A stretch of 64,000 nucleotides of DNA from Flavobacteriales bacterium (GTDB taxonomy: Bacteria; Bacteroidota; Bacteroidia; Flavobacteriales_F; PHOS-HE28): contig JADJAA010000001.1 in NCBI GenBank assembly GCA_016704485.1, positions 1,554,824 to 1,618,823 on the forward strand, given 5' to 3'. The notes beneath the pieces were generated by a model, which saw only the letters and a list, made by a program, of their open reading frames with translations, ran no database searches and was not told the DNA's origin. Numbering within the stretch: the first letter of the stretch is position 1; the number at the start of each line of letters is the position of its first letter. A program made the position numbers and the translations under genes. Positions 25,449 through 42,676 of this stretch are shown here, one piece after another.

Positions 25449-27004
25449 TTCAACAACGCCTCCAATTCGTCCAACAATTTCACACGGTCGGCGGCCAATT
25501 GGCGCAGGCCGGGTTCTCCCTTTTTGCCGTTGATCAGCTCGGCGGGCGTGGCATACTTCACTTGCTCGTACACCACCTCCTTGTAGCGGTTTATGCTGAG
25601 GTCCCAGTTGTTGGCCTTCAAGTCCGCAAAGGGCACCAGAAAGCTCTGGTCGGTTCGTGCACGTTTGCTTTCACCTTTCGCACCGAAGCGCGCTAGGATG
25701 TCGGCGATGTTGCTTTTCTCGTGCAGCGTTTTCGCTCCCTTGGTGGGCTCGGTGTATTGGAGTTCAAGCTGTTCTTCGGTGAGTTGCGGTGTGCGCTTAT
25801 CATCCAACGAGAAACCGTCGGCACGCATGTCGTAGAACCACACGTTGTCGGTACCGCCGCTATCGGTCTTGGTAAAGATCAGCACCGCGGTGCTCACCCC
25901 TGCATAGGGTTTGAATACGCCGCCGGGCATGCTGATCACCGCTTGCAATTGCTGGCGTTCGATCAGTTCCTGCCGCAGTTGCTTGTGCGCCTTGCTGCTG
26001 CCGAAGAGCACACCATCGGGCACGATCACAGCTGCGCGGCCACCTGTGCGGAGCATGCGCAGGATCAGACCTAGGAAGAGCAACTCGGTCTTCTTGCTGC
26101 TCACTGTGCGCAAGATCGCAGGGTCCACAGCGTCGTGGTCCAAGCTGCCTTTGAACGGCGGGTTCGCTAACACCAGCGAGAAGCGCTCACTGATGTGGCC
26201 TTGCTCTTTGCTAAGCGCATCCTGCCCGATCAGTTGCGGGTGCTCAATGCCGTGCAACATCATGTTCATGGCACCAATGCGCAACATGCTGGAGTCGAAC
26301 TCGACCCCGGTGAAGAGGTTGGTGTTGTAATGCTCGCGGAACTTCTTCTCGTGGAAGCTGTCCGGGTGCGTGCGCCGTATCTCTTCGCTTGCCGCCACCA
26401 AGAAACCGCACGTGCCGGCACTGGGATCGCAGATGGTATCGGTGGGTTGCGGAACCATCAGTTGCACCATCATGCGGATGATGTGGCGCGGTGTGCGGAA
26501 CTGGCCGTTGCGTCCTGCCGTAGCGATCTTGCCCAGCAGGTATTCATAGAGGTCGCCCTTGGTGTCGCGGTCGGCCATGTCCAGCGCGGCGATCATTTGC
26601 ACGGCGCGGTCCAGCAACCGCGCGGAGGGGATCATGAACGTAGCACCCTTCATGTGCTCACTGAACACGCTGCCCTCGCGCCCCATCTGCTTCATGAAAT
26701 CGAAGACCGTGAGGTTATCGTTCTTCGCATCAGGCCGCGTAAAGAGCGCGAACAATGTATCCGGGTCCTTGTCCTTGAAACTGCTCCACCGCAACGCCTT
26801 GTACTTGGGCGGGTAAATGGGATCCTTGATGGGCCCACCGAGCTTGGCGCTCTGCTTCTCTTTGGTGGTCTGGATCTCATCCATCCGGCGCAAAAAGAGC
26901 AAGTAGGTGATCTGTTCGATAACCGTGAGCGGATTGGCGATGCCGCCAGTCCAGAAGGCCTCCCAGAGGCGGTCGACGTCGGAGCGGAGTGTTCCGTTTA
27001 TCAT
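25445..27004 (-). CDS. hsdM: Type I restriction-modification N6-adenine DNA methyltransferase (HsdM)
   Basis: HsdM_N region present. Motif I ICDPSAGTCGFLVAA and motif IV LANPPFKGS are both intact. Confidence 0.9.
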   Translation of the reverse strand: MINGTLRSDVDRLWEAFWTGGIANPLTVIEQITYLLFLRRMDEIQTTKEKQSAKLGGPIKDPIYPPKYKALRWSSFKDKDPDTLFALFTRPDAKNDNLTVFDFMKQMGREGSVFSEHMKGATFMIPSARLLDRAVQMIAALDMADRDTKGDLYEYLLGKIATAGRNGQFRTPRHIIRMMVQLMVPQPTDTICDPSAGTCGFLVAASEEIRRTHPDSFHEKKFREHYNTNLFTGVEFDSSMLRIGAMNMMLHGIEHPQLIGQDALSKEQGHISERFSLVLANPPFKGSLDHDAVDPAILRTVSSKKTELLFLGLILRMLRTGGRAAVIVPDGVLFGSSKAHKQLRQELIERQQLQAVISMPGGVFKPYAGVSTAVLIFTKTDSGGTDNVWFYDMRADGFSLDDKRTPQLTEEQLELQYTEPTKGAKTLHEKSNIADILARFGAKGESKRARTDQSFLVPFADLKANNWDLSINRYKEVVYEQVKYATPAELINGKKGEPGLRQLAADRVKLLDELEALLK

Positions 27005-27017
27005 GGGGTGAAGATGG

Positions 27018-28226
27018 TCAATGTTTGGTGATGGTGGTAAATTCCCATTTAGACTGTCCGTTCAGTTCGACTTGTTTGACTTGGCCGGAAACGAGGTCGC
27101 CATCCACAAGGCTGTGTAGTTTTATCAGATCCTTGTTGATGTAGGCATCGCCAGCATGGGCGTAGGTGTTATCGTTGCGTTTCTTGACCACGACGCGGCC
27201 CAGTTCTTTGGTATCACCGTCGAGTAGGGGAACTCCGTCGCTGCCTACCGCTTCCTCGTGTAGCCAGGTTCGGTTCGCCTTGGGGTCTGGATACTTTGCT
27301 GCGAACTTCTTGAACCAGACCAACACGTCCATGAGCTGGAACACGATGGTGCTCAAGAGGTAAGGCGTTACACCATGCTCGTGTAGTGCTTCGAGATTGT
27401 CCAAGCTGTAATTGGAATCCTCAGCGGTCTCGTCCGCATGCGAGCTTTCGCTGGTTACCCGCAGAATATTGTCCAGTGCATCGGCAACGATCCGGGGCAT
27501 CATCGGGCGGTCACACTTCAAGGCCACCGTGGCCGAAGAACGGCTCGGATAAAGCACGCGCTCGCCCCGCAGGAACAGTGCTGACAAGCGTTGGTTGACC
27601 CTCGGCTTTACAAGGACATCGGGTAGTAACCCGTGCCGATGCGCGGCATAGAAGAAGTGCTCCACTACCTGACGCAAAGGATTCATGAATAAGCGATCAC
27701 TACCGGACTTGTCCCCGCGATCCACAAAGCGCAATGCGTCCATGAACATAGGGTCGGCAACGGCATCCAAATAAGGAACTTGGAGCACTGCGAACACATC
27801 GGCATACCTATCACGAAGCGCTTGCTCGTTGCTTCGATCAACAAGGCTCTGTAGTTCCGCGTATAGGTCCTTCTCGTTCCCTTTCAAGTACCGCCGCTCA
27901 TCACGACGGTTCTTTGTTGCACCTTCGTCAAAGCCGGTATTGATCACATACGGAATATGAATGTTCGCTCCTTTCCATTGGTCCAGATCCCTGCGGGCTT
28001 CATGCAGGTGGTCGATGTCCTCGGTGGGTGAATGTTCATCCACCTGCCCTCTGGCATCGAGGATCAAGGCTTTGAAACGCTTTTCTCGGATCGGTTCCTT
28101 AGCCTCGGCCCAGGTCTTGAACCAAGTCACTTCGAAACCGTGCGCGACCGCCTTAGCAATTTGGGCTTTGGCGTATGCTTCATCGTCATCTACTAAGGCG
28201 ATCGGAACCAGGTCAAACAGTGTCAT
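27018..28226 (-). CDS. Receiver (REC)-like domain protein with uncharacterised C-terminal output domain
   Basis: Likely start MTLFDLVPIALVDDDEAYAKA (acidic pair after beta-1). Putative phospho-acceptor Asp in KALILDARG. Thr in IPYVINTGF. The C-terminal ~300 aa are unknown and contain an Rx4H motif (RQVVEH). The start overlaps the stop of the upstream kinase gene by ~14 nt, and the gene ends 13 nt before the hsdM start. Confidence 0.55.
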   Translation of the reverse strand: MTLFDLVPIALVDDDEAYAKAQIAKAVAHGFEVTWFKTWAEAKEPIREKRFKALILDARGQVDEHSPTEDIDHLHEARRDLDQWKGANIHIPYVINTGFDEGATKNRRDERRYLKGNEKDLYAELQSLVDRSNEQALRDRYADVFAVLQVPYLDAVADPMFMDALRFVDRGDKSGSDRLFMNPLRQVVEHFFYAAHRHGLLPDVLVKPRVNQRLSALFLRGERVLYPSRSSATVALKCDRPMMPRIVADALDNILRVTSESSHADETAEDSNYSLDNLEALHEHGVTPYLLSTIVFQLMDVLVWFKKFAAKYPDPKANRTWLHEEAVGSDGVPLLDGDTKELGRVVVKKRNDNTYAHAGDAYINKDLIKLHSLVDGDLVSGQVKQVELNGQSKWEFTTITKH

Positions 28227-30909
28227 GCGAAATGGGAAGGTCAATGGTGAAGTGGACAAACATTTGAGTGGATACAGCTTCCCGGTCAAATGGTATCCAA
28301 TGATTCTCGTCTATACGTTGATCGCGTTCAAAACTCGATCGGTACTTGTCATCGCTCACTGGCAGGTTACCCGACACGAACTTTCCGCCGTGGTTGGCAA
28401 TGATCCGATCGATCAGATAGCCGCCTATGCCATTGCCCTTTTTCATGTCCAGACGCTTGCCAAAGGTGATGAAGTGCTCATGGGTAAAACCTTCCGGAAA
28501 GGGTTTGCCGTTGTTCTCGATGGTGATAACCAATCGCGTTCGTTGAGGTTCAATACGCGTTGATACCCTCACCCGTACGACCAATTGTTCCTGATCCGAT
28601 CGAAGGCCGTGTTTGGCCATATTGATGAACAAGTTCTGGATGACAAGTGCGAACTGTTGTTGATCGACATGTGCGATCACTCCTTCAGTGGTTTCTAGTC
28701 CAGCTTCACATTCGAAAATGACCATAAGCGCTTTCACCTGGTCGGCAAGTCCGCGCAATTCCGTTCGGAACAGTCGACGAAGGTCGATGGGCACTGGTCT
28801 TAGACTCTCCTTATCTGATCGGATCACCGCATTGATCAATTGAAAGAGACCGCGCATGCGATCCAATCCACTATTCATTGTATCTAGGGCGGTGGTGATC
28901 GTAGACTTTTCAACTGGGCCCAAACTGTTGAGTACTGCATGGATCTCGGCCATGGGTTGCTCCAGAAGCGCCACCACCGGGCGGAAGCTGTGCTCCACTG
29001 CACCAAGGATCTGCCACTCATCAGTGGAGAGGCCATGCTGTTTTTCCTGCCTAGCGATCTCCTCCTTCTTCGCCAATAGAATGGATTCCTTCCGTTCGCG
29101 AACAATGCGCAGTTGATCCTTGAGTTCGGGTAAGCGAACCCGAATTCTCAGAACGTCTGCTTTGGCTATGAAAGCGATCGTACTTCCTTGGTGGTATGCG
29201 TCGAGCTGATCTTGGATCGTGGGCGTTCTTAGTTCTGTTGCGAGGTATTCGGTATTAGCACGAGCCGCATCCACACGGAACATGAATACATTGCTTCCCA
29301 CGGCGATCGGTCCATCTACCGGGTCGAATAAGGTCGGCTTCAACTTTCCGCCCACCCGTGCAAGTAGCAGTGCTGGCACATCCAATCTCTTCAGTCCCTT
29401 CTTGACAGAACCGGTTTCATGTTGCCCATCACGCGCCGTGCGCCTCATGTCGAGGACATCCGTTGAAAGCTCGGAGACCTGGAAGAGCGGCAGACCGGCG
29501 AGGTCGCCCATGGAGAGGATATCGTCCGAAAGCACGGTGCCGAGTTCAACCACGTCCACACCATCCGCTTCGGCCACGATATGGGCTTGTTGAAGCAGGC
29601 TGGCAAACCGACTCATGCTCCAAGACACATGCTCGTCGGAACGGATGTCAGAAACCTTCACGTCCAAAACACCTTGTAAGGTATAAGTGCTATCCAACGC
29701 CTGCAGCACGCTGCTAACATCGAGTGTTATTTCGGATCGCGTCTTGTATGTGACATGCAAACCCGCATCCACGAATCGGACAGGCGCATTCGTTGGCCGT
29801 GATCCATTCAAAACAATGATCGAGGTCTTTATCCCTGAGTAGGGTGTGAAGGATCCTGCTGGCAACGAGATCACTGCTTCGAGCAACCCTAGGTCAAGAA
29901 TCTGTTTGCGTAGATGCGCTCTGTTGATGCCGAACAACATACTCTCGGGCACAAGGATCACCGCCTTCCCCTCGGGTGCAAGCCGCTTGAGGATCTGGTT
30001 GATCGCTATCTCATAGGGTTCTATCGCGCGTAGCCTTCCTTCCTCTTTCACTCGACCACCGAAAGGTGGTGCACTAATGCAATGCGTATACTTCTTGTTG
30101 GAAGCACCGGGTGCTGATGGTTCGTTCAAGGCGGCGTTCAGGTCTGCCCCGAGAATACGTGCTTGCAGCGTATTGAAGAAGAATGCGAATTGGTTGAAGA
30201 ATACCGCGTCGAGCTTTACAGAATGTGGCGCACGCGCTGCGAGCACTGCTGGCAATACGCTCGCATCCGCAGCTGGGTCGAATACCTCTTCCACGTCTCC
30301 GAGCAGCCGCGCCATAAGCATTGCAACGGACCATGGCGTACAGAACTGGCCCATGTGACTATCGCGCAAGAGGAGGCTACGCATTTCTTCCACATACTCG
30401 ATCGGTTCCAAACCCGCTGATGCCATGAGAAAAAGCTCAGTTTGTACTGGGCTTGTTGCCAGTGCGCCGCCATTTTTAAGAAGATACGAATGCTGCTCCC
30501 CAAAGTCCTTAAACTCCTCTGCCAATTCATTCAAGGTGGACCATAATCCTTCTCCTCTTTGAGCGATCGTAGGCAACACTCCTGCTGGGCGCACGGCCAA
30601 GGCATAAATGAGTGCCAGCTCCAAGCCAACGGTCTGCGCGAAGGGCATGGATCGTAGCGCATTGCGCAATTCCCATGCGTGGGCCTGAAAAAAACGGACC
30701 CGGTTCAACATACGTTCTGGATCCAACTGTAAACTACCGTCATCGGATATACTAACACGCCCACCAGACAACTCCACCTCAGCAAGCAAGCTCGATGGCT
30801 CAACGTCCTTCTGGCTCAATAAGACCTTGACGATATTACAGACACCCTCCAAAGTATCCGAGCCGTTCTTCAGGCGAAGGGCACATATTATGGCGTCTAT
30901 CAGTTTCAT
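28213..30909 (-). CDS. Fusion protein: degenerate N6-adenine MTase-like domain + HsdS-like TRD + histidine kinase (HisKA + HATPase_c)
   Basis: MTase fold present: GQFCTPWSVAMLMARLLG...VFDPAADASVL (the glycine-rich SAM loop is degenerate) and ISAPPFGG (motif IV with Asn/Asp replaced by Ala). TRD-like stretch: VGSNVFMFRVD...STIAFIAKADVLRIRVRLP. H-box: AVEHSFRPVVALL. N box: VIQNLFINMAKHG. G boxes: IENNGKPFP and GNGIGGYLIDRIIANHGG. Confidence 0.75.
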   Translation of the reverse strand: MKLIDAIICALRLKNGSDTLEGVCNIVKVLLSQKDVEPSSLLAEVELSGGRVSISDDGSLQLDPERMLNRVRFFQAHAWELRNALRSMPFAQTVGLELALIYALAVRPAGVLPTIAQRGEGLWSTLNELAEEFKDFGEQHSYLLKNGGALATSPVQTELFLMASAGLEPIEYVEEMRSLLLRDSHMGQFCTPWSVAMLMARLLGDVEEVFDPAADASVLPAVLAARAPHSVKLDAVFFNQFAFFFNTLQARILGADLNAALNEPSAPGASNKKYTHCISAPPFGGRVKEEGRLRAIEPYEIAINQILKRLAPEGKAVILVPESMLFGINRAHLRKQILDLGLLEAVISLPAGSFTPYSGIKTSIIVLNGSRPTNAPVRFVDAGLHVTYKTRSEITLDVSSVLQALDSTYTLQGVLDVKVSDIRSDEHVSWSMSRFASLLQQAHIVAEADGVDVVELGTVLSDDILSMGDLAGLPLFQVSELSTDVLDMRRTARDGQHETGSVKKGLKRLDVPALLLARVGGKLKPTLFDPVDGPIAVGSNVFMFRVDAARANTEYLATELRTPTIQDQLDAYHQGSTIAFIAKADVLRIRVRLPELKDQLRIVRERKESILLAKKEEIARQEKQHGLSTDEWQILGAVEHSFRPVVALLEQPMAEIHAVLNSLGPVEKSTITTALDTMNSGLDRMRGLFQLINAVIRSDKESLRPVPIDLRRLFRTELRGLADQVKALMVIFECEAGLETTEGVIAHVDQQQFALVIQNLFINMAKHGLRSDQEQLVVRVRVSTRIEPQRTRLVITIENNGKPFPEGFTHEHFITFGKRLDMKKGNGIGGYLIDRIIANHGGKFVSGNLPVSDDKYRSSFERDQRIDENHWIPFDREAVSTQMFVHFTIDLPISHDTV

Positions 30910-30971
30910 GCAACGGGGGTCAAAGTAAGCGGTGGAGGGTTATGGTGTAGATGTGTTTGCAGGTTATGATC

Positions 30972-32234
30972 TCAAGCGACTTTCTCCAGTCGGTTTGTCG
31001 GCAGAAGTTGGGCAGCCATACGATCCATGACCTCCCATTCCGGACGTGTGTACGAGTTGCTCTCCGTGACCACCGGGATCCTGAATTCGCCCATGGCATC
31101 CTCGCGCATAGCCCATTGATCCTTCTGGTCGTAGAGCTTTGTTCCGGGCAAAAGCATCAGCGGCCAAGCCTTAACGTCCCTGCAGCCTTTGGATAAGAGG
31201 TGGTCGATACTACGCTGGAAACTTTCCAAGGTCTGTCCGGGCAACCCGTAGATCAAACTCACTTCGAAAGGAATCTCGCGCTCCACAAGCTGTTCAATAG
31301 CAGCATCGACAAGATCCATCCGATTGGCGCGGTCAATTTTCTTGGACACTGCATGGTCCGTGGTCTGCAACCCGAACTCCAAGTGGAAGTTGGCTTGCGT
31401 ACAAAGGTCCAGGAATGCATTAACCTGTTGGCCTCGGATATTCTCAAAGCGCGATTGCAGGGTGAAGGTGGAGCGCGTACGGAGTTGAACGATCTCTTGC
31501 ATTATATCCAGGCACTCCTTCCCAGCGTTGAAGATGGGGTCGAGTATGTTCACGCGTTGCACACGATGTTCAGTGAGAAATGCTAACTCTTTAAAGACTT
31601 TATCCAGTGGGTGCTTATGCACGCGGTGAGTGGCGAGGTCGCGGTGTGCGCAAAATGAACACCGGTAGGGGCAGCCGCGTTTGGTCTCCAACCGTACCAT
31701 ACCGGCTCCCATTGGTACAGGCAATTCGCCAGTGAGATACGGTGAGGCCAGTTGTGTGAAGTCCACTGGTACGTTCACGAACACGGGTTCGTCGGCATCG
31801 AGATGGTCCGTCAATTCGGCAAAGGCTTGTTCGGCTTGTCCGGAGATGAAGACCTGGCAATCCGGATACCGACGCAGCAATTCTGCTCGGTTCCCGTAGG
31901 TGACTTGATACCCTCCGAGGACCACCTTGCCAAGGAACCCAAGACGACGAAGCAATGCGATGATGCCATTGGTGAGGTACTCGTTCCAGATGTAAGCCGA
32001 GAGCGCGATGGCGTTAAAGCGGCTCACATCAAGCGCCGCGAGTTGCACTTCGAATTGCTCGGGTGTGGCCGTGCCGCCGTGTTCGAGCATGTTGATCGAG
32101 AGGTGTTCCACGTGCATCTGTCCACGCAGCCGTTCATTACTCCGTTGGTGTGCCAAGAGAGATGCGATCGCCAAGGGCTTGGTGATCTCACCGTGCCGGA
32201 TCAGGTCGAAGGATATGATGAGCGTGTTCGTCAT
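30972..32234 (-). CDS. B12-binding-domain radical SAM protein
   Basis: N-terminal cobalamin-binding-like Rossmann region followed by a radical SAM cluster motif (MVRLETKRGCPYRCSFCAHR). The ~420 aa are counted from the probable start MTNTLIISFDL. Confidence 0.8.
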   Translation of the reverse strand: MTNTLIISFDLIRHGEITKPLAIASLLAHQRSNERLRGQMHVEHLSINMLEHGGTATPEQFEVQLAALDVSRFNAIALSAYIWNEYLTNGIIALLRRLGFLGKVVLGGYQVTYGNRAELLRRYPDCQVFISGQAEQAFAELTDHLDADEPVFVNVPVDFTQLASPYLTGELPVPMGAGMVRLETKRGCPYRCSFCAHRDLATHRVHKHPLDKVFKELAFLTEHRVQRVNILDPIFNAGKECLDIMQEIVQLRTRSTFTLQSRFENIRGQQVNAFLDLCTQANFHLEFGLQTTDHAVSKKIDRANRMDLVDAAIEQLVEREIPFEVSLIYGLPGQTLESFQRSIDHLLSKGCRDVKAWPLMLLPGTKLYDQKDQWAMREDAMGEFRIPVVTESNSYTRPEWEVMDRMAAQLLPTNRLEKVA

Positions 32235-32343
32235 TGGTCCTCGCCACCAAGGGTCTATATGGTTGGATAATCGCTCAACCAACGAACTTCCCTATGGCAA
32301 CGGACCAAAAGTCCCGGTCACCTGTGCAGTCTATCTGCACAGT

Positions 32344-33354
32344 TCATTTCGCGTAGTTCTTCTTCATTTCCATCACCCGCAAAAGCAGCGCTTGGCGTAG
32401 TTCTTCCGGCGCAATAACCTGTAGCCCTTCTCCATAAGATAACAACAAGGCTTGTAGCTCGTAGTTCAGCTTCACTTCTAAACGAATAGTCGCGCCGCCG
32501 TCTTTTCTCTTCACTACTTTCTGCGAACCGTGTATAGGCTTTGACTCCAAATAAGGCCAAAGTCTATCCGTGACTTGGATCTTGACAACAACAGCTTCTT
32601 GATCCGCAGGTACACTTACACCAACAACATCCTCAAAATACTCCGTGAAATCCACCTCATCGTTCGGTATGTATTTCACCTTACTGGGTACAATATCCCG
32701 GATCCGGTCCAAGGCCATATTGACAATACGCCCCTCTTCCTCAAGACCAAAAACAAACCAACGGTTGTTATACTGTTTCAAGTAATACGGATGGAGCAAC
32801 ACAATGCTAGGCGCATTTTGCTTGAAGCCTTGGTAAGATATTTCCAAGGCTTGCTCATTGATGATCGAATGAAATAATGTGGTAATGTGCTCGGCACCTT
32901 TCAAATACGGGTTCTGCTCAAACTCGATGACCTGAGCAGCCCCTTGTTTCAGCCCGAAACCAGCTTCCAACCGAGCAACTAATTCATCTACCCATTCAAA
33001 CTGCGGCATGCCCTTAAATCGGCTCAGCGTTAAGAGCGCCTCCTTCAATTGTTCCGCTTCGCTCTCGTTCAGCGGTCGCTTGTTGATAGAGAATTCAAGG
33101 TCACTGTACCGGTAAAAAGTACGCTTTCCGTCTTTGTGTTTCTCCAGCGGGATAGCCCATCCTTGTTCGCTCTCCATGTACTTGATGTCCTCGAAAACTT
33201 GGCGGCGGCTGATGCTTGCACCTGCTCCGGTGAACTCCTCCAACGCCATGTTGCAAGCTTCCATCAGGTCTTCGATGAAATACTCGCGCCCACGGTTCGC
33301 AAAGCAACGGTCCATTGTCTGATAGCGAATAAGGGCATTCTTATTTACGGGCAT
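32344..33354 (-). CDS. WYL-domain transcriptional regulator (wHTH-WYL; BrxR/CapW-like)
   Basis: The ~336-aa size and architecture match BrxR/CapW regulators. The WYL-like core is LLHPYYLKQYNNRWFVFG, with an N-terminal HTH region. It sits at the head of a same-strand defence gene block. Confidence 0.65.
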   Translation of the reverse strand: MPVNKNALIRYQTMDRCFANRGREYFIEDLMEACNMALEEFTGAGASISRRQVFEDIKYMESEQGWAIPLEKHKDGKRTFYRYSDLEFSINKRPLNESEAEQLKEALLTLSRFKGMPQFEWVDELVARLEAGFGLKQGAAQVIEFEQNPYLKGAEHITTLFHSIINEQALEISYQGFKQNAPSIVLLHPYYLKQYNNRWFVFGLEEEGRIVNMALDRIRDIVPSKVKYIPNDEVDFTEYFEDVVGVSVPADQEAVVVKIQVTDRLWPYLESKPIHGSQKVVKRKDGGATIRLEVKLNYELQALLLSYGEGLQVIAPEELRQALLLRVMEMKKNYAK

Positions 33355-33493
33355 CTCGGGTGGCTGAAATTAGGGCTGAACGGTGTTACCAGCCTCGTCT
33401 TTTATGGTCCTTCAGAAATACAAAAAACGGACTAATGCTTCTGCGCTCACTTTTCAAAAATCAATTGCATAGAGCAAATTAATCTTCCGCTGC

Positions 33494-33895
33494 CAGCTGG
33501 GTGGTAACCTGCACCAAGCTTGATGGTACCACACACCAAGCTTAGTGGTACCCTGTGCCAAGCTTAGTGGTACCTTGCACTAAGCTTGATGGTACCCTGC
33601 ACTAAGCTTAGTGGTACCCTGCACTAAGCTTAGTGGTACTCTGCACTAAGCTTAATGGTACCCTGCACCCAGTTGGGTGGTACCCTCCACCCAGCAGGGT
33701 GGTACCCTGCACCCAGTTGGGTGGTACCCTGCACTAAGCTTAGTGGTACCCTGCACTAAGCTTAGTGGTACTCTGCACTAAGCTTAATGGTACCCTGCAC
33801 CCAGTTGGGTGGTACCCTGCACCCAGTTGGGTGGTACCCTGCACCCAGTTGGGTGGTACCCCGCACTAAACTTAATGGTACCCGACACCAAGCTC
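33494..33895. repeat. 22-bp tandem repeat array (~18 units) with two unit types and a 6-unit higher-order repeat
   Basis: Unit T1 is ctgcactaagcttagtggtacc and contains palindromes ACTAAGCTTAGT and GGTACC. Unit T2 is ctgcacccagttgggtggtacc. The pattern (T1 T1 T1' T2 T2' T2) occurs twice. No ORF is present. Confidence 0.9.
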
Positions 33896-33983
33896 AATAG
33901 TGCATTCCATTGATCTTGAGGGAGTTCACCTGAACCAGCATTGCGCTTGTGCCTCGGGAACTTGAGGAAGTAAAAGGTGAAAT

Positions 33984-34206
33984 GGTCCGCTATCTATACC
34001 ATACTACTATAGGGCACATTGAACCTTAGTCTGGACTTCCGCCTTCGGAACTGCATTCGCTGCCAGATGATCATTGGGGTGCAATTATCCCAAACCTATA
34101 CCATATTACTATAGGGGGCATAAGCCTCCATCTCCGGCTCGTGAACTTTGGAGGTAAAGATGGTGTGATTTGACCTACTACCTATACCATATTACTATAT
34201 GGTGCT
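33984..34206. promoter_or_regulatory. Three dispersed copies of a ~21-bp dyad-symmetric site (cCTATAccatattacTATAGGg) spaced ~90-110 bp apart
   Basis: Copies at ~33986-34008, ~34094-34116 and ~34182-34204. The 6-bp inverted arms CCTATA/TATAGG are operator-like. Confidence 0.5.
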
Positions 34207-34287
34207 TTGCACCGTGCGCCTCGTGGTGCACACTTGTGGTTCAGAACTGCTTCATGTAGGCCTGGTGCAAGAGGCTGTATTTGTTCC

Positions 34288-34750
34288 ATTGGTACATGGC
34301 CTTGTCCCGTAAGTACATGTACTTGTGCCTTTGGTACATGTACTTGTCCCGTGAGTACATGTACTTGTCCCGTAAGTGCATGTACTTGTCCCGTGAGTAC
34401 ATGTACTTGTCCCGTGAGTACATGTACTTGTCCCGTAAGTACATGTACTTGTCCCGTAAGTACATGTACTTGTGCCGTTGGTACATGTACTTGTCCCGTA
34501 AGTACATGTACTTGTGCCGTTGGTACATGTACTTGTGCCGTTGGTACATGTACTTGTGCCGTGAGTACATGTACTTGTGCCGTGAGTACATGTACTTGTC
34601 CCGTAAGTACATGTACTTGTGCCGTTGGTACATGTACTTGTCCCGTAAGTACATGTACTTGTCCCGTAAGTACATGTACTTGTCCCGTAAGTACATGTAC
34701 TTGTCCCGTAAGTACATGTACTTGTGCCGTGAGTATGTGTACCTGTACCA
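34288..34750. repeat. 21-bp tandem repeat array (~22 units) built around the perfect palindrome GTACATGTAC
   Basis: Units are cccgt(a/g)agtacatgtacttgt and gccgttggtacatgtacttgt. All six frames are open across the array because the period is 21. Confidence 0.9.
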
Positions 34751-35352
34751 TGTGTAACGATACTTCAAGTTACAGTACACTTACTTGATACAGAGGTGCT
34801 TATGCCATTGCGTGGGGTATGCCTGCTTGTAACACGGGGACTGATAACCCACTCAGCGTCAGGCGTAAAGAGTGATCCGAACGTTGCCCGTGCTGCATAA
34901 CCCATCCTCGAGCGGCCGCGTGCGGGCTACAGTAAATGAAAAGAACCCCGGCCAGTTGTGCTAGGATTCTTCCGTTCGGGGATGGTGTATGAGTGGCAGG
35001 GTCGTCTGCTATGCGGCAGACTGACCCTGAGCGGGTTTAAAAATGCGCCGCTGCACTACGCAATGGGTAGCGGATGCGCAGTTCGCTTACCTGGTGGACC
35101 CCGCATCGCCCGAAGCGGAACTTCCGCACAAAGCAACCCTCTTGGTGCACTGCCCGGAACGCGGCGAGATCCGGCTGAATATATTGTCCAACGGTTCCAT
35201 CGCCGAACTACAGTTCACGGACTGCTATGAACCGATGTCCAGAACCACCAGCATAGCAGAAGAATCCGATCCGATGTCTCCTTTTACCGTGGTACATCGG
35301 CATTGGGATCACGGCAGTGAGGTGTAGGTGTGCCCCTCATTTGAATGGAACG

Positions 35353-35392
35353 ACCCCGCTGTTTTTGCTGGGTCGTTTTTTTTGCTGGGGGG
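35353..35392 (+). terminator. Rho-independent terminator (plus strand)
   Basis: acgaccc-cgctgtttttgct-gggtcgt stem-loop followed by T8. Confidence 0.5.
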
Positions 35393-35457
35393 CGCGAGAG
35401 ACGAGCTTCCATTCTTGCAGACCATGGATCAATGGGCATTGGATGGAATGTAAATTG

Positions 35458-36426
35458 TCAAGCCTTTATGAACTCGTTCACAAAAGCTTGTACAAATTGC
35501 TTGGCTAAAGCAGAGTAAGGCTTGGTCGGCTCTGTCAGTTGCATCAGCAATTCCACCTCTTGCTCGATCATCGCCTCAATTGTTCCTGTGGTCTTTTTTA
35601 CAAGTTTGTTCAATGTACGTGTTGGTACTTTATCCTTGAATGATCTGATATCCTTACCGATCTCGTTCGATAGGTCGATCAATTTCAAGATCATCTCAAA
35701 ACGCATTTTTAATCGCAGAATGTATTCTCTGCGCATATCGACCAACCCCTTTCTATTCAAGCCGTAGATCTCAATGGAACGGATCGCTTTTTGCCAATGG
35801 ATCTCCCTTTTTATCACGTTCTCTGATGAGGGCAAAGCAATGGCCTTCATTACTCCTGAGTCATCGTATTCCAAGTATTTGCTAGGTTCGTCCGTACAAG
35901 GGTTCAACAACAAACATTGTTCGCCTGAAATATCGAACAGCGGCGCACTCGCACGCATTGTTTCATCAAACAATGGAAAAGAGTTTGCCTTTCCTTGTTT
36001 TAGCTTTTTCCATTGATAGGACCCATCTATGGGGTTCTTTCGATACACATATTGATAGCGCGCTCTATTGCAGTCTATGCATGAAGGGAGTAGATTATCC
36101 CATTCCATTGCGAGCTTAGCATATACACCTACTTTAGTTTCGGTCTTGTTCGTCAATTCTACGAGCACTTCGGATTTGGGTCTGAAATGCTCAATATCCA
36201 GCGGTTGTGTGCGCGTGTAAGGTGATTCGCAATATGCACATTTACCATGGAACATAAGCTCCAACAACTCAGGCACTTTTTCGTGCTTGTAAAGCTTGAA
36301 ATCGGGCTTTAGGTCCTTGTGGAAATCGCTTCGAAGCCATGCTTCCACCTCTTCCTTTTCTTTGTTGAAGGCATCCGAGGTTATGGTAAGTGCCTGCGGG
36401 GCATTTACGCGTTTTCGTTTGATCAT
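35458..36426 (-). CDS. HNH endonuclease of the TIGR02646/PtuB type (Septu-like nuclease component)
   Basis: HNH motifs GKCAYCESPYTRTQPLDIEHFRPKS...WDNLLPSCIDCNRARYQ. 322 aa. Lies immediately downstream of the ATPase gene. Confidence 0.7.
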   Translation of the reverse strand: MIKRKRVNAPQALTITSDAFNKEKEEVEAWLRSDFHKDLKPDFKLYKHEKVPELLELMFHGKCAYCESPYTRTQPLDIEHFRPKSEVLVELTNKTETKVGVYAKLAMEWDNLLPSCIDCNRARYQYVYRKNPIDGSYQWKKLKQGKANSFPLFDETMRASAPLFDISGEQCLLLNPCTDEPSKYLEYDDSGVMKAIALPSSENVIKREIHWQKAIRSIEIYGLNRKGLVDMRREYILRLKMRFEMILKLIDLSNEIGKDIRSFKDKVPTRTLNKLVKKTTGTIEAMIEQEVELLMQLTEPTKPYSALAKQFVQAFVNEFIKA

Positions 36427-36434
36427 TGAAGAGC

Positions 36435-38822
36435 TCAGTTGTTCAGGCGCCAGGAAGCATCCGTTAAAGCCTCTATTATCTTCTTAGTGGGTTTGGGAAA
36501 TCGTACGTTGGTCGGTGACTTCATCAAGTGCTCATCGATCAGCCTCAACAAGTACATATCACGCCGACTACTACCGAGAATGCTCTTTCTGTTGAGTCGT
36601 TCATGTAGATCCTTCAGTTGTGCCTTACCCGAATCATCTAACGCCGATGCCTTCGCTATGAGGTTGTAATAGCGGTCAAAGAATTCAGCTGTGCGCGGGT
36701 CCAGGGTTGTACTTAATCCGAATAATTCTGAGGTAAGGAGCTGGTCGGAACGTAAGCCAGCCGGCGAATCCATGTCGTCGTGTACTGTAGCCATGGAAGG
36801 GTCGTCCACATTTCTCTTGACCAATGCTACTTCACCAGCACCCAGCCCATGCAGGCATAGTGGCTCATGGGTGCTCGCGATGAATTGGATAAGCGGAAAT
36901 GTCTGTTCCAATCTTCTTAAGATGCTCATGCGCCAACTCGGGTGCAGATGTGCACCGATCTCATCAATTAGTACCACGCCTCTAATTTGATGCGTATCCG
37001 TTGGATTGCCTGCCATTATATCACAGGCTAGACCAACCATGGTCTTGTAACCCGCACTAAAATGCTTTAAGCGGGTGAATGACCCGTTCACGAAAAGCCC
37101 GAATTGTGTTGGCTTGTTGTTTTCAAATTGAAAGTCGAGACGTGTAGAATTATCTGTAAGATCCAGCAGGTCCTTCAAGGCCACACAAACATCGAAGAAC
37201 TGCTGTTGATTCTTTACCACTATGGTACGTAACCACTCTTCGGCATCTACCATGGGATAGAACGGGTCAAAGAGGTTCTGGATGTTCTTATTCACTCCCC
37301 TTTTCTCTAACAGATCAGAACTCTTGCCTTTTTGCGGCAGCAATCGAACAGGCCCGTATGCACGAAGAAATATATTCGGGACCTCACCTTGCTCCCATTT
37401 TAATCCGCTATTCGTGATGTTCACTACGATAGGATCTGTTCGCTGATGAAAGTAGACTTCAATTCTACCTGACGTAGCTCCACGCCTCAAGCTAGTGCTG
37501 AAATGCTCCTTCATCTTACTCAAGGCTTTCTTGCCGCTGAGTATCAATGCAAGTGCTTCGAGCAGCGAACTTTTTCCTGACCCGTTCTCACCCAGCAGCA
37601 TTTTCCAACCGCTGTGTCGAAAGGTTTCCTGTTGTGGAGATTCGGAGCCGTTTTCGTCGATCGTCTTCCGGCGTTCCTCTTGATTGCCTCCCGCTGTTTC
37701 CGTGTTCAAGTCTAAGTTCAGTTCACGTTCTGTGTCTACTAGGTCTTTCGGGCGTTCTTGGGGGATCAAGAATACAGCCTTCTCGAAGATCCTGTAATTC
37801 TCAACTATTAATTTGCTAATGGTCAGCGCTTGATGCGCGACTTTCTCCTTGGACGGCGCATTCTCTGTGGCGGTTTTCGGAGGAGTTCTTTGCGCCTCGG
37901 AACTCGTCTTCTTTGGAGACTCCTTATTAGCGCGTGTTGATCCCGGTTTCGTACGCGCTCCGGTCTCAGCTTCTAATAAGGACCCAGGCTTATTGAGCCC
38001 TTTGCTTATTGTTTCGACGTGCAGGCCGTCGCCTTGAATGAGGATTTTTAGTCCGAAGTCCTCCTTAAGAACATGGTTACTCAGATTCCGCATTGGACTT
38101 TGCGGGTCTATCAGTCCTTTCAAGAAGTGATCTTCTTCTACGGTTCGAGGTAGTTTCTCACCCTTTTTTTTAAGAACCAGAGACTTTGTCAAGTCGCGAA
38201 CTCGGTGAACCATATCACTCCTTCTATTGATGGCGGATTTCCGGTTCAGGTCCAGAGTTTCAATGGTCACCTCGGCTCGTCGCTTCTGCATGTGCCCTAA
38301 AGTGGAACGAGGCTTTATCATTCCATTAGATGAATAGTCGAAGTACTCCTCCGGATCGTCTTCATAAGGATTCAGCAAATACGGTTCTTCTTTCTCGAGC
38401 GCACTCCCCCGAGGCTGGTCATCAGCATGCTTGATAGGAACACGTTTTCCGGCGATGGGAAACTGTGCTCCCTTTGCAAAACTGCACTCATTGCATATGG
38501 GTAGCATGTTCTGCCAATCAAACAATAGCCACCAATAGTGGTCGCCAACCTGCTCATTTGGTTCCACTTTTACCGGTCGGTACAGGTCGATGTGTACCGT
38601 CTTTTCATTCAAGGGTGCTTCGCAATACGCACATGCATTATTGGAGGTTTCCAGAAGATCTCGGTTTACATCACGAGAATACTGTGGAGCCTTGTGTCTT
38701 ATCTGGCTTCGCTTCTCTAAAGGTTGCGCATAAAACTTCCGAAGTTCATTGAACGTCTTCTCTCCTTCCGTACTGTACTGTAGGTCTGGTGGAGATACTT
38801 TACTTCGGTTCAGTTTTCTCAT
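36435..38822 (-). CDS. AAA_21/ABC-type ATPase (PtuA-like) with an additional N-terminal HNH-like domain
   Basis: N-terminal HNH-like region NACAYCEAPLNEKTVHIDLYRPVK...WQNMLPICNECSFAKG. A low-complexity linker is followed by Walker A MLLGENGSGKSSLLEAL, Walker B VVLIDEIGAHLHP and FIASTHEP. Confidence 0.7.
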   Translation of the reverse strand: MRKLNRSKVSPPDLQYSTEGEKTFNELRKFYAQPLEKRSQIRHKAPQYSRDVNRDLLETSNNACAYCEAPLNEKTVHIDLYRPVKVEPNEQVGDHYWWLLFDWQNMLPICNECSFAKGAQFPIAGKRVPIKHADDQPRGSALEKEEPYLLNPYEDDPEEYFDYSSNGMIKPRSTLGHMQKRRAEVTIETLDLNRKSAINRRSDMVHRVRDLTKSLVLKKKGEKLPRTVEEDHFLKGLIDPQSPMRNLSNHVLKEDFGLKILIQGDGLHVETISKGLNKPGSLLEAETGARTKPGSTRANKESPKKTSSEAQRTPPKTATENAPSKEKVAHQALTISKLIVENYRIFEKAVFLIPQERPKDLVDTERELNLDLNTETAGGNQEERRKTIDENGSESPQQETFRHSGWKMLLGENGSGKSSLLEALALILSGKKALSKMKEHFSTSLRRGATSGRIEVYFHQRTDPIVVNITNSGLKWEQGEVPNIFLRAYGPVRLLPQKGKSSDLLEKRGVNKNIQNLFDPFYPMVDAEEWLRTIVVKNQQQFFDVCVALKDLLDLTDNSTRLDFQFENNKPTQFGLFVNGSFTRLKHFSAGYKTMVGLACDIMAGNPTDTHQIRGVVLIDEIGAHLHPSWRMSILRRLEQTFPLIQFIASTHEPLCLHGLGAGEVALVKRNVDDPSMATVHDDMDSPAGLRSDQLLTSELFGLSTTLDPRTAEFFDRYYNLIAKASALDDSGKAQLKDLHERLNRKSILGSSRRDMYLLRLIDEHLMKSPTNVRFPKPTKKIIEALTDASWRLNN

Positions 38823-38823
38823 C

Positions 38824-40638
38824 TTAACTATGTGCTATTCTGTGGAACGTGTTCGCCAAATAGTGCTTCGGGTTAGTCCTGGCGATCAGGTCGAATTGTG
38901 CTTCGCTCAGGCCGGCCAGCATATTGGCATAGAGCTCCTTTTCTGATAGGTGGTTCCTCACGACAAAAAAGTCTGTACCGAACAGGACCCGTTCACCGAG
39001 TTTCTTCACTGAATGGTCGATCGTCTTTTTCAGTAACGGTTGTATCCACGGATCGTGCAATATGTAACTGATATCTGCATAAACGTTCTCATAGCGCAAC
39101 ATCATACTGCAAATGATCGTGTACCAGTCAGCTTCCATCCAGTGAGCGTAGACACGTGTCCATTGGATGCGCTTGTGTTCGTTGTCATAATACGATCGAT
39201 GAAATAATCCGCTTTCAGCATGCAGGTTCAGATCTTGGTTGTACTGGTCATTATCGGCTTCTAAATGTCGTTTCCATTCATCAACACCACCAAAATGTGC
39301 CAAGCAGATCTTCAATTGAGAAAGTGATCGGAATTTTTCATCGGGACCTTTTTCGAACAACGTTTGAATTCGGGGTTGGCAGCTCACGAGGTGCTCCCTC
39401 AAGAGGTCATCATCCAGCAGGCAGAGGTAGTTCAATGGATGTGTGTAGTTCTTTTGAAAGTCGATTCCGCGAAGTTCCAACAGGTCAATGGGTGCGATCA
39501 CCGTATCGTCATGTGCGTCCTCTATTCCGGTTGAACGCTTGAAGACAGGATGCTTTGCCATTTCATCAGTGATCTTGTCTCGGGAATATATTGTGCCATG
39601 CACGCAATGGGTCATGATCGGTAAACCTTCCTGAGCTGCATACGCCCACACGGGCAATAGGTCTTCATCGAAAGGATAATAACCTAAAGCCGGGTAGATC
39701 TTGAATCCGCAGCAACCATTGCTTAGATACTTCTGGACTTTACATTCAAGCAAGACTACTTTACCGTATTCTACTTTCCACTTGAAGAAGTCATCCTCTT
39801 CACGAATTCGGCGTGGATCAATGAAGATGAAAGGCAGTATTTGATGTCCATGATCTTCACCTTTGGTAAGTTTTACAAGCCCTTCCATTTGTTTGTGGAA
39901 ATCACCTAATCGGTGGACCTTCCCCGCACCCATGTATTTCATATCCATTGGTAGAACAATGAATTTGGTTTCGGCTGGGTACTGGGCCCGGAGTTTTTGA
40001 AAGAGTAGACTTAGTCGCCTTTGGTCATCACCGGTTTTCGCACTTTTCGTCTCGTAACCATAAGAGCTGAAGCGTGCGATAAGTACGTATCGCTCCAAAA
40101 GGTCCATGTACTCCGTAGCAGGAAAGCTCTTGATCATTGGAACAAACTTTTGTAGAAGGAACCAGATCTGTCTTCGAACGGCTGGGATGAATGCAATAAT
40201 TGCTGCTACGAATATGGTCTTGATCGCCCAGTGTAATTCATGAAAGTATAATTTATACTTTACAAGTAACGCCAAGAACGCCGCGATATATTTCGACCCG
40301 CCATAGAAGGTGCTTTCAACCAAAACTTCATAAAGGAATAATAACACATAGATCGTAACGATCAAATTAAACGCACCTCGTACAAACTTCAAGAAGCTGT
40401 TTCGTTGGATCCTGTTCTGCGCCTTTACCTTGTTTATGCGTATGGTTTCTTGTGCCGGTTCATACCGCTCGGCATACTTCCGTCGGTTGCACTTCACGTA
40501 AAGTTTCATGAAGTAATCCATTCGCGCCCACTTGTACAACGGCCACGGAAGAATACCCTTTGCATGCTCTGGAGGCACGTGATAGTTGTTGAACAAGTGC
40601 ACGTGGCAGTTCACTATGGGGTCCTTCACTTTACTCAT
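38824..40638 (-). CDS. Amidohydrolase-family (TIM-barrel metal-dependent hydrolase) protein with inserted hydrophobic membrane-like segments
   Basis: N-terminal metal-binding motif HxH (CHVHLF). A hydrophobic insertion follows (FNLIVTIYVLLFLYEVL, IAAFLALLV...IFVAAIIAFIPAV). The C-terminal region is ...LFGTDFFV. Its stop lies 1 nt upstream of the PtuA-like start. Confidence 0.6.
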   Translation of the reverse strand: MSKVKDPIVNCHVHLFNNYHVPPEHAKGILPWPLYKWARMDYFMKLYVKCNRRKYAERYEPAQETIRINKVKAQNRIQRNSFLKFVRGAFNLIVTIYVLLFLYEVLVESTFYGGSKYIAAFLALLVKYKLYFHELHWAIKTIFVAAIIAFIPAVRRQIWFLLQKFVPMIKSFPATEYMDLLERYVLIARFSSYGYETKSAKTGDDQRRLSLLFQKLRAQYPAETKFIVLPMDMKYMGAGKVHRLGDFHKQMEGLVKLTKGEDHGHQILPFIFIDPRRIREEDDFFKWKVEYGKVVLLECKVQKYLSNGCCGFKIYPALGYYPFDEDLLPVWAYAAQEGLPIMTHCVHGTIYSRDKITDEMAKHPVFKRSTGIEDAHDDTVIAPIDLLELRGIDFQKNYTHPLNYLCLLDDDLLREHLVSCQPRIQTLFEKGPDEKFRSLSQLKICLAHFGGVDEWKRHLEADNDQYNQDLNLHAESGLFHRSYYDNEHKRIQWTRVYAHWMEADWYTIICSMMLRYENVYADISYILHDPWIQPLLKKTIDHSVKKLGERVLFGTDFFVVRNHLSEKELYANMLAGLSEAQFDLIARTNPKHYLANTFHRIAHS

Positions 40639-40766
40639 TTTTGATCCAGTGCGTACTGATCACTTATAGAGATCTTATGATGCCAGTACTATCGGTCAGA
40701 AATGCATTGACTTGCCACCACATTATTGTGATGGCTCATGGTCGAATGGAACGTAAATCTGTGGAG

Positions 40767-41864
40767 TTAAGAATTAGGTACTATCTGCACACCAAACCGG
40801 AACTGGAAATTCTTCTTCACGAAATCATCTCCGGAATACCAATTAGCCACTATTCGAACGACGCTATTCAATGCTAAACCTGCGCTGAATTGCCAAAGAT
40901 CGATACCTCCCTCTGACGTACGATCAAGATTATGCCAAAAAACAGCATTTCCACTTATGTGAGAATAGCGCACTTGACCAAAAAGAGCCATGCGATCCTT
41001 AATCCCAGTAAGTGAAAATACCATTTCTGCACCATTATCAAAGTTTTGGCCAACGACATTTGTGTCTACCCCGATCTTAGGAAGATCGAAGGATAATCGA
41101 GGTGCATAATGCAAGCGAATGGACAATCGACGGTTCAGTGAGGTAAATCCGACAATTGGCACACCGAAATTCAAAACCCCGTTTCCGCCACCGCCAAGAA
41201 TACGTTGCACCTGATCTTGGAAAGTGGCGCTGGAGTCTGAAACTGGCACTGTATCTGGCTCACTCGTCTTGTTGCTGATCAGCGCACCAAAACCCATTCG
41301 CACTGGTCCGAAATAATCATAAACAACCTCCGAGTATAGAGATGCTTTCTGTGCTTGCCCACTATACGTGAGGAGATTATTCTTTAGGAGTTTTCCCCGT
41401 TCCTCTTCAGAACTGAAACCATCGTAGAAATATTCCGTCGCAATTCGCCGGACCGCCAAGCCATAAAGCCCTTCTGTTACATCCGGATCGAACCGGATGC
41501 GCAACAATTCTTCTCTGTACGACTGGAAATCCTGCCTTCGCTGTCGATATGCGGCTTTCAGTGAATCGATCAGTTCTTTTGAATCGGCGGAGCGGTCATT
41601 ATCCAGTGCTTGGAACGAAGCTCTTCGGAATGCTTGTTTGTGTTTCTTGTTTTCGGCTCGATCGTCTTTCAAAAATGCATATACACTCTTTACTTGTATT
41701 GACGAATCAGACGGTTCAAGGAATTTATTCAGTTCAACTTTTGTTAAGTCTATGTTGCTTTTCCGAGACTCACTGTTTGGAAAAACAAATGGCCCCGTTT
41801 GTGCGAACATTGTGCATGAGGTTGAAAGCAGGAATATCGCAATTGTTGTTCGTCTCATTGTCAT
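40767..41864 (-). CDS. Secreted hypothetical protein (signal peptide; possible outer-membrane protein)
   Basis: N-terminus MTMRRTTIAIFLLSTSCTMFAQ. No domain recognised. Confidence 0.45.
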   Translation of the reverse strand: MTMRRTTIAIFLLSTSCTMFAQTGPFVFPNSESRKSNIDLTKVELNKFLEPSDSSIQVKSVYAFLKDDRAENKKHKQAFRRASFQALDNDRSADSKELIDSLKAAYRQRRQDFQSYREELLRIRFDPDVTEGLYGLAVRRIATEYFYDGFSSEEERGKLLKNNLLTYSGQAQKASLYSEVVYDYFGPVRMGFGALISNKTSEPDTVPVSDSSATFQDQVQRILGGGGNGVLNFGVPIVGFTSLNRRLSIRLHYAPRLSFDLPKIGVDTNVVGQNFDNGAEMVFSLTGIKDRMALFGQVRYSHISGNAVFWHNLDRTSEGGIDLWQFSAGLALNSVVRIVANWYSGDDFVKKNFQFRFGVQIVPNS

Positions 41865-41884
41865 ATACTTTTCAGTTCAATTAT

Positions 41885-42676
41885 TTAGACTTCTACACCA
41901 TAAGATTCCGTGAACGCCGCTTCAGCGTATGATTTGCTGGCGTAAGCAAACCCTTTGTCTCCCCACAGAGTGGTTCCCCAACTGTTTCGCACGATGAAAT
42001 GATCAGGCGTGTATCCGACAATAGAGACAGCGTGGCCACCTAGGTTGTCGCTGGCACGGTAGCGCGCTAGTTTGCCCCGTGTCTCTTTCGCATCCATAAA
42101 GGCGTTGTCACAGTTCAGCCGGGTGAGAATGGGGCCTTTGTTGGCGATCCAGCGCCGCCATTCATTCAGGTCTTGGCCTAATGAGAAGTAGCGCATCACC
42201 TTCAACTGCGCAGCAATCGCGTAGAACACATCGGTCTCATCCGGATAGAGTATTCCGCGACCGAAAGGCAACACGCTATCCAGCACTGCGCCGTATTTGC
42301 GCGATACATCGAGTGCTGCTTTCAGACTGGTTCCATCGCTTTCAATGAATGAGGTTGGTTTGTCGGTGAATTCATCGATCTCCTTTGCGGCCATCCATGT
42401 AAAGCGCGTGCTAAGCCTACGGTTGGTGGCGATCCTTCCGGCTTTTGCGAAATGCCAACGCAGCACACCTTCGGCGCAAGCCCAGCCAACGCACGAGCCG
42501 GTACTTCCTTGGTCGCCAATGGTCCACCAATCTTCTCGCAAGTCTTTTTTAGGCGGAGGTGGTGCTGGTGCGCGTAGTGCGCCAGCGGCACGTGCTGTGT
42601 GCAAGTTCCAATCGTTTGCGGTGTTCAATGAAGGAAGGCAATTGAGGACGCGGGGAGGTGATTTCTTTGTTGCCAT
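41885..42676 (-). CDS. C1 (papain-like) cysteine peptidase family protein
   Basis: Motif QGSTGSCVGWACAEG around the catalytic Cys. A His-containing region lies near the C-terminus (GGHAVSIVGY). Confidence 0.55.
   Translation of the reverse strand: MATKKSPPRVLNCLPSLNTANDWNLHTARAAGALRAPAPPPPKKDLREDWWTIGDQGSTGSCVGWACAEGVLRWHFAKAGRIATNRRLSTRFTWMAAKEIDEFTDKPTSFIESDGTSLKAALDVSRKYGAVLDSVLPFGRGILYPDETDVFYAIAAQLKVMRYFSLGQDLNEWRRWIANKGPILTRLNCDNAFMDAKETRGKLARYRASDNLGGHAVSIVGYTPDHFIVRNSWGTTLWGDKGFAYASKSYAEAAFTESYGVEV

Follow-up and report, generated by a model that had tools for sequence, protein, structure and literature searches.

The window, a 64,000-nucleotide stretch of the chromosome of a Flavobacteriales bacterium (contig JADJAA010000001.1), contains a 2.1-kb gap without genes (33355-35457), and the genes neighboring this gap all lie on the minus strand. 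To the left of the gap is an operon headed by a WYL regulator, and further left lie HsdR, GmrSD and a 1610-aa helicase; to the right is a Septu system. An earlier note on this DNA had described a 22-bp tandem array upstream of the regulator. We find that this array (hereafter, array 1) is one element of the gap, which holds, in left-to-right order, the WYL operon's promoter region, array 1, a triplicated motif, a second array, a unique spacer, a 94-aa open reading frame (ORF) and a hairpin. The second array and the triplicated motif are context that was absent from the earlier note. The features are as follows.

24303-32282, minus strand: rest of the WYL operon (radical SAM, methyltransferase fusion, 423-aa protein, HsdM, HsdS), made up of the next five entries
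24303-25448, minus strand: HsdS, type I restriction-modification
25445-27004, minus strand: HsdM, type I restriction-modification
27018-28289, minus strand: 423-aa protein, between the methyltransferase fusion and HsdM
28213-30909, minus strand: methyltransferase fused to a specificity-like region and a GHKL-type ATPase
30972-32282, minus strand: B12/radical SAM protein, PADLOC candidate PDC-M51A (7e-117)
32344-33354, minus strand: WYL regulator, 336 aa, with winged-helix, WYL and WCX domains
33355-33490, minus strand: WYL operon promoter region, ~136-137 bp, containing no array unit
33491-33908, no strand: array 1, 18-19 head-to-tail 22-bp units
33601-33732 and 33733-33864, no strand: duplicated 132-bp block of array 1, six units each (A A A B B B)
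33977-34213, plus strand: triplicated 49-nt repeat, copies starting at 33977, 34079 and 34165
34292-34746, no strand: array 2, 21.7 head-to-tail 21-bp units (Tandem Repeats Finder score 693)
34747-35042, no strand: unique spacer, 296 bp, between array 2 and the gene remnant
35043-35327, plus strand: 94-aa ORF, the 3' remnant of a gene whose intact form, at related loci, encodes 138-160 aa
35350-35383, plus strand: terminator-like hairpin of the remnant gene (ACGACCC, 13-nt loop, GGGTCGT, eight T), read from the sequence
35458-38822, minus strand: Septu, with PtuB at 35458-36426 (1e-68) and PtuA at 36435-38822 (2e-157)

The gene beside array 1 is, as the earlier note had said, a genuine WYL regulator. 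It matches the Pfam WYL (3.3e-10) and WCX (1.7e-11) domains, and its fold model (mean pLDDT 79) matches DriD (3e-15), BrxR (2e-7) and CapW (2.3e-7), and also PafBC. The cluster of WYL regulator, PDC-M51A, methyltransferase-specificity-GHKL fusion, ~400-aa protein, HsdM and HsdS is conserved across Bacteroidota (the window, L002, L004, L006, L154, L160), and its ~400-aa protein has a weak Rho/cold-shock-like RNA-binding match. The cluster looks like an uncharacterized defence system linked to restriction-modification, and our literature search found PDC-M51 mentioned in no paper. Elsewhere in the window, 6850-10223 holds a RecQ-like helicase, with a weak, sub-threshold C-terminal match to phosphoribosyltransferases, overlapping a DprA/SLOG protein, and the 1610-aa protein (10664-15496) is a fusion of a DpdF-like DEAD helicase with a UvrD-like helicase. 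Type IX secretion sorting domains mark the host as a Bacteroidota, and core chromosomal genes (BamA, Skp, UppS, NAD kinase) make up the right end of the window.

Anatomy of the gap

Tandem Repeats Finder places array 1 at 33501-33894, with a period of 22 bp, 17.9 copies, 83% matches and a score of 417; an alternative call for this span has a period of 132 bp, 3.0 copies, 87% matches and a score of 571. Read in register from 33491, the array comprises 19 units, degenerate at both ends. Each unit consists of a 14-bp palindrome followed by GTACCCTG, with GGTACC spanning the junction of the two. The palindrome is CACTAAGCTTAGTG in units of type A and CACCCAGTTGGGTG in units of type B, and the units run in the order B-like, seven A, three B, three A, three B, two A. 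The two 132-bp blocks (units 5-10 and units 11-16) are identical at 128 of 132 positions; more generally, the interior units are homogenized and the edge units have diverged. Within the array, ACTAAGCTTAGT occurs four times exactly, GGTACC 15 times, AAGCTT 10 times and ACCCAGTTGGGT five times, while GGTACCCTGCAC with at most one mismatch has 15 occurrences, all of them inside array 1, against 0.18 expected. The unit is found nowhere else in the 64-kb window or in ~1.1 Mb from 169 fetched loci, the span over which we looked for a dispersed satellite, the refuting case of the earlier note, or for REP/BIME-type palindromes, which are scattered in many copies through intergenic DNA. An ORF scan found no ORF of 40 aa or more crossing the array, whose first unit lies 137 bp from the WYL start codon (33354, minus strand). 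The description in the earlier note, of about 18 non-coding head-to-tail units with two palindromes each, of two types, arranged as a duplicated six-unit super-repeat and starting ~140 bp upstream of the regulator, is thereby borne out, with the refinement that the palindromes are 14 bp long. It was also right that the array is not CRISPR-like: the units abut, without spacers.

Array 2 follows the same design as array 1: a 14-bp palindrome is joined to a linker of 7-8 bp, and the period is about two helical turns. Its consensus unit is the palindrome AAGTACATGTACTT followed by GTSCCGT, and it is the more regular of the two (91% matches). The array is open in four frames, and gene callers annotate ORFs of 158-193 aa across it; these look spurious.

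Between them, the two arrays flank three strongly conserved 21-bp boxes. These boxes, CTATACCATAYTACTATAGGG, are the cores of the 49-nt repeats (33994-34014, 34096-34116 and 34182-34202), whose copies are spaced 102 and 86 bp apart. Nineteen of the 21 core columns are invariant versus 23% in the flanks (permutation p < 5e-5), and the core contains the inverted repeat CCTATA-N9-TATAGG. We found no conserved RNA structure downstream of the boxes. They are probably a binding site or a promoter, and if the gap holds anything functional, these three candidate operators are better candidates than either array. The core ends in ACTATAGGG, and we considered a promoter for a T7-like polymerase; this was rejected, as the window has no single-subunit polymerase. 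An 18-mer of the core also occurs in nine viral contigs. Four of these belong to one family, in which the match examined lies within a 781-aa ORF, and the other five share no flanking sequence; we treated these matches as chance.

Across the 14 distinct units of array 1, 85.7% of the positions in the 14-bp palindrome pair. The five differences between types A and B all fall within the central 8 bp of the palindrome, and pairs 4-11 and 5-10, which are T-A and A-T in type A, become C-G and C-G in type B. The covariation score is 0.234 versus 0.142 in shuffles, and none of 500 shuffles reached 0.234. Such compensatory changes look like constraint and would fit either a hairpin, in RNA or single-stranded DNA, or the binding site of a dimer. 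They may, though, be the product of only one or two events or of templated mutation: since the units are copies of one another, few independent events lie behind the covariation, and correction of the palindrome by template switching would give the same picture.

Related loci, independent assemblies and similar arrays

Homology to an uninterrupted locus (L027-L030) begins exactly at 35043, within a gene, ends at ~35396 and resumes at 43497/43660. Septu and its neighbors therefore belong to one inserted block (~35397-43496), and everything to the left of 35043 belongs to another. By the same breakpoints, the arrays sit between the edge of an inserted block and a truncated core gene. In the orthologous loci L004 and L154, the WYL island starts ~110-170 bp upstream of the regulator's start codon, and this edge is close to the position at which array 1 starts in the window. 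From these alignments, we take the gap to be the seam that joins two horizontally acquired defence modules, the WYL operon and Septu, in a Bacteroidota chromosome.

The locus at 35043-35396/43497-47674, compared with L027-L030, is a hotspot with differing cassettes between conserved flanks; the cassette comprises Septu, an amidohydrolase-like gene and a peptidase in the window, and a PLD nuclease elsewhere. At 43701-43746 of the window, a 24-bp direct repeat in 1.9 copies, CTACTCCCGAAAAACCATAGGGTA, is conserved at that position in L027-L031 too, upstream of a conserved pair of genes (257 aa and 214 aa) and of two-component-system genes, and it may be a regulatory site. An unrelated array of 17 21-bp units, with a 63-bp super-repeat in 6.5 copies, is found at L029 (4510-4917; also at L030, 1522-1928), an allelic or paralogous locus, upstream of an fn3 gene and an intact 138-aa gene. 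L029 comes from GCA_963852075.1, an assembly that also carries the window's allele.

Identical arrays of 18 and 22 units occur in at least six independent assemblies (L022-L024, L026, L162-L164, L166, L169), and array 1 is therefore not an assembly artefact. The assemblies that share the window's layout are close to clonal (0-4 differences over 8.3 kb), and two scaffolds among them have runs of N within the arrays. Two megahit assemblies from one project have 10 + 10 units between flanks that are 100% identical, which is either a real contraction or a collapse of the repeat, and short-read contigs from two further samples (L007, L008) end inside array 1.

The WYL operon recurs in five other lineages (L004/L005, L006, L154-L159, L160; regulator identity 67-70%), where the gaps upstream of the regulator measure ~60-370 bp; none of the five contains an array or a tandem repeat. 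Several of the orthologous operons examined share with the window a Bacteroidota -7-like box, CTAATTTCA (33365-33373, minus strand), ~10-20 nt before the WYL start codon, which argues that the WYL operon has its own proximal promoter. Array 1 begins beyond this box and neither overlaps nor abuts the WYL promoter, and the type A and B units, the array 2 unit and the 21-bp box show no similarity to the promoter region at 33355-33490 (p > 0.18). On this comparative evidence, nothing appears to link array 1 to the neighboring regulator, and the proposal in the earlier note that it serves as a binding array for that protein is not supported.

One contig bears a possible resemblance. L002, whose regulator is 76% identical to that of the window, has five degenerate 21-bp repeats, CGACCSCCGTGCAGGKNGTRC, at 1-105, that is, at the contig start, 640 bp upstream of the regulator gene. 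These repeats and the array 1 unit share GTGCAGGGT in the same orientation (p ~0.006-0.02, uncorrected). After the degenerate repeats, L002 also has an odd G/T-rich stretch (480-650). Arrays were considered, too, as the reason why short contigs with WYL orthologues stop just upstream of the regulator; the clpB/island boundary explains these ends instead.

The exact two-unit pattern of array 1 is absent from the genome and viral collections that we scanned, and a metagenome scan gave one match, L001, which is unrelated to the window. (At 197-230, L001 carries two GTGGTACCCGGCAC direct repeats that are 22 bp apart, and the ORF immediately downstream is, going by its N-terminal sequence, a putative IS110-family transposase.) Relaxing the pattern to four successive GGTACC hexamers at a 22-bp period gave 110 stretches from representative genomes and 8 from viral contigs. 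Most of these are true arrays, of 4 to 135 copies and with otherwise unrelated units, in more than 100 unrelated genomes (L032-L149, e.g., L080, L093, L101, L132, L133). The Bacteroidota loci examined are intergenic and occur in every gene orientation. Altogether, 119 flanking genes matched 111 Pfam families, and the only informative recurrences were Rep_3 (three genes) and ParA-type (two genes), pointing to a few true iterons among the GGTACC arrays. None of the loci shares defence genes with the window. In the viral contigs, GGTACC at periods of 20, 21, 22 and 24 gave 0, 10, 8 and 21 matches, and the control hexamer GGATCC at period 22 gave 4. We therefore rejected a special GGTACC/22-bp family, as the other hexamer and periods give similar counts and the flanking genes are unrelated to each other and to those of the window. 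Neither the hexamer nor the 22-bp period is special, and arrays of this kind are generic and heterogeneous.

Several further observations concern these arrays as a class. One unit family is present at many loci in a Latescibacterota MAG, a 'Chitinophaga pinensis' MAG, Bacteroidia HK-STAS-BACT-47 and Sorangium. GGTACC/22-bp arrays are often adjoined by a second, different array; in L132, 135 units adjoin 207 copies of GCACAC. Inverted-repeat arms of at least 5 bp are apparently commoner in the units than expected (~37% vs ~20% by chance, in a rough hand count). Target-site-like direct repeats around the arrays were considered and rejected for the window, where they are not significant (z 0.2 and 0.5). 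Direct repeats of this sort were found only at L050 and L059 and, more weakly, at L045: an imperfect 38-bp direct repeat, GAAGCTCATGCTGCGCTTG..., stands on either side of the 23-unit 22-bp array of L050 (1-680; a Flavobacteriales MAG), the bracket at L059 is similar, and most other arrays have none.

Array 1 as a candidate minisatellite

With roughly even confidence, we read array 1 as a lineage-specific, non-coding palindromic minisatellite within the filler of the seam, one that would have grown by slippage and unequal exchange and would have no dedicated role. Several results lead us to this reading. The array is not conserved with the operon, since the orthologous operons have no tandem repeat, and its position is the scar between an inserted block and a truncated core gene, outside the conserved gene cluster. 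Its degenerate edges, homogenized interior and duplicated six-unit block are the marks expected of slippage and unequal exchange. The lineage, moreover, makes such arrays (the 17-unit array of L029/L030), and GGTACC-phased arrays in general lie next to unrelated genes. The units are unlike the WYL promoter region. A known RNA family was excluded, as Rfam returned no match beyond sub-threshold microRNA noise. A restriction-site cluster or methylation sensor was likewise excluded: elsewhere in the window, the observed/expected ratios of GTAC, GGTACC, AAGCTT and ACATGT are 0.74-0.94, which shows no depletion.

The array may have started from a short palindrome-bearing seed that was duplicated, and would then have grown through slipped-strand mispairing and unequal exchange, with the duplication of the 132-bp block as the latest visible step. 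Hairpin formation by the units would favor slippage, and template switching or conversion between the arms could keep them palindromic. The WYL operon would use its own promoter near the gene, leaving the array without a dedicated part in its regulation.

Among known repeat classes, array 1 resembles the VNTR minisatellites (e.g., mycobacterial MIRU), which are also non-coding head-to-tail repeats with units of tens of bp; the likeness extends to the degenerate edges, homogenized interior, block duplications and restriction to one lineage, and a shorter allele may exist. Unlike the usual VNTR, however, it is made up of double palindromes in two compensated types, the copy numbers of the two arrays (18 and 22) are high and apparently stable, and two different arrays flank a conserved triplicated motif within a defence island. 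Four points count against the minisatellite reading. The compensatory changes in the palindromes of both unit types look like constraint; the arrangement of two arrays of the same design around three conserved boxes looks organized; the copy number is the same in at least six assemblies, although these are nearly clonal; and the L002 repeat that shares GTGCAGGGT upstream of a 76%-identical regulator is a weak counter-hint.

Alternative explanations and their significance

The alternative that survives best, possible though unlikely, is a landing pad for protein, in which the 14-bp palindromes bind a dimeric protein, the WYL regulator or another, that coats the array cooperatively. With a phasing of 21-22 bp the sites would lie on roughly one face of the helix, and the coated array could titrate the regulator or shield the WYL operon against read-through or supercoiling from Septu. 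Palindromes about two helical turns apart in both arrays, and maintained through compensatory changes, are what such a protein would call for. The three boxes between the arrays resemble operators, and in L002 a possibly related repeat lies upstream of an orthologue, a weak hint. The regulator itself has the fold of BrxR, CapW and DriD, and relatives of it bind inverted repeats near their own genes (PMC9122601). Like array 1, the BrxR/CapW operators are inverted repeats upstream of a winged-helix/WYL/WCX regulator that heads a defence operon. BrxR operators, however, are one or two sites at the promoter, with 10-11-bp arms and a 5-bp spacer (PMC9122601), and the same architecture describes the BrxR/CapW operators together, whereas array 1 offers 18 phased 7+7 palindromes without a spacer, starts 137 bp upstream, and is missing both from the orthologous operons and from the promoter-proximal region where a BrxR-type operator would lie. 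Types A and B differ, moreover, at two of the seven half-site positions and the array 2 palindrome is unrelated to either, so that two or three proteins or very loose recognition would be needed, and the gap contains no candidate small DNA-binding gene.

A broader version takes the 1.3-kb block of array 1, boxes and array 2 as a single regulatory device of the defence island, which we consider decidedly unlikely. Here the boxes would be operators or promoters and the arrays either landing pads or divergently transcribed hairpin-array RNAs; the arrays' effect would be to insulate the WYL-controlled methyltransferase/radical SAM/type I restriction-modification operon from Septu, or to tune it with respect to that system.

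It is also improbable, in our view, that the arrays act as transcribed hairpins, produced by divergent transcription from the box region or by read-through from Septu. The minus-strand RNA of array 1, with ~18 short hairpins, would then act as a leader, a decoy or a sponge for some part of the defence system that binds nucleic acids. Compensatory changes within pairs are classically taken as the mark of a stem. When G.U is allowed in the five outer pairs, a hand count gives 5 unpairable positions on the strand of the WYL operon (minus) against 13 on the plus strand; this asymmetry, however, rests on ~10 substitutions (~p = 0.05). Reading the minus strand between Septu and array 1, we found no U-tract terminator, and the structure entries of DriD and CapW have WYL domains crystallized with single-stranded DNA. 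Against this, scans of the gap for sigma-70 and Bacteroidota promoters gave nothing reliable, so no promoter can be placed there with confidence; the Rfam search was negative; and the array has no homologues for an independent covariation test. The folding z-scores of -6.6 and -5.5 are similar on both strands and are uninformative, being expected of any palindromic repeat.

The hairpin explanation invites comparison with type III toxin-antitoxin systems. The ToxI antitoxin consists of 5.5 repeats of 36 nt upstream of toxN, and array 1 is similar in that tandem repeats stand directly upstream of a defence-related gene. It differs in its shorter unit, far more copies and the lack of a terminator before the gene, and the gene downstream is the WYL regulator, not an endoribonuclease; with no ToxN/AbiQ-like toxin present, we rejected this assignment.

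Least probable of all, and very unlikely, is that array 1 is what remains of a plasmid, phage or integrative element, its origin iterons or partition centromere left behind after integration and decay. The earlier note had raised iterons or the remnant of a replication origin, and this is not supported. Iterons are direct repeats of ~17-22 bp, and the period of array 1 falls within that range; 22 bp is the classical length, as in the seven 22-bp repeats of the R6K gamma origin. Like the plasmid iterons of R6K gamma and the Rep_3 family, array 1 is a direct head-to-tail array with a 22-bp period. Iterons, however, usually number 3-8 copies and are usually not palindromic, whereas the units of array 1 are palindromic and the arrays have 18 and 22 copies. 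Nor does the gap have an initiator gene or an AT-rich unwinding region, its GC being 0.48-0.51. Partition centromeres offer another likeness, since those of F (sopC, 12 repeats of 43 bp, each with an inverted repeat), R1 and pSK41 (parC) also consist of many phased units with a dimer-compatible inverted repeat, and the arrays of R1 parC flank a central region as those of the gap do; array 1 is unlike them in being chromosomal, without parA/parB or parM/parR nearby. When the large ORFs of the 64-kb window were scanned with Pfam, none proved to be a Rep, Par, integrase or relaxase gene, and no ParA, ParB, ParM or ParR domain came up; the window has no tRNA gene; and neither a near nor a distant search matched the gap to any of 72,556 plasmid and 50,697 phage records. 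Core chromosomal genes, besides, occupy the window's right end. What speaks for such a remnant is the location of the arrays at a junction of acquired DNA, the Rep_3 and ParA-type matches (three and two of the 119 genes flanking GGTACC/22-bp arrays) and the documented occurrence of 22-bp iteron-like repeats beside rep genes (PMC10378824). On the best reading, array 1 is neither an origin nor a centromere. CRISPR- or TIGR-like arrays were ruled out as well, there being no spacers and no Cas or Tas genes.

If array 1 is only a minisatellite, as in our preferred reading, it is of limited practical use: short-read assemblies of this defence island break there, it is a possible strain marker for a common activated-sludge Bacteroidota, and it marks a hotspot of defence-cassette swapping. 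If, on the other hand, the arrays and boxes bind a regulator or are transcribed, they would constitute an unusual and large cis-regulatory architecture for a WYL-controlled defence operon, and would go some way to explaining the insulation of adjacent defence systems from each other.
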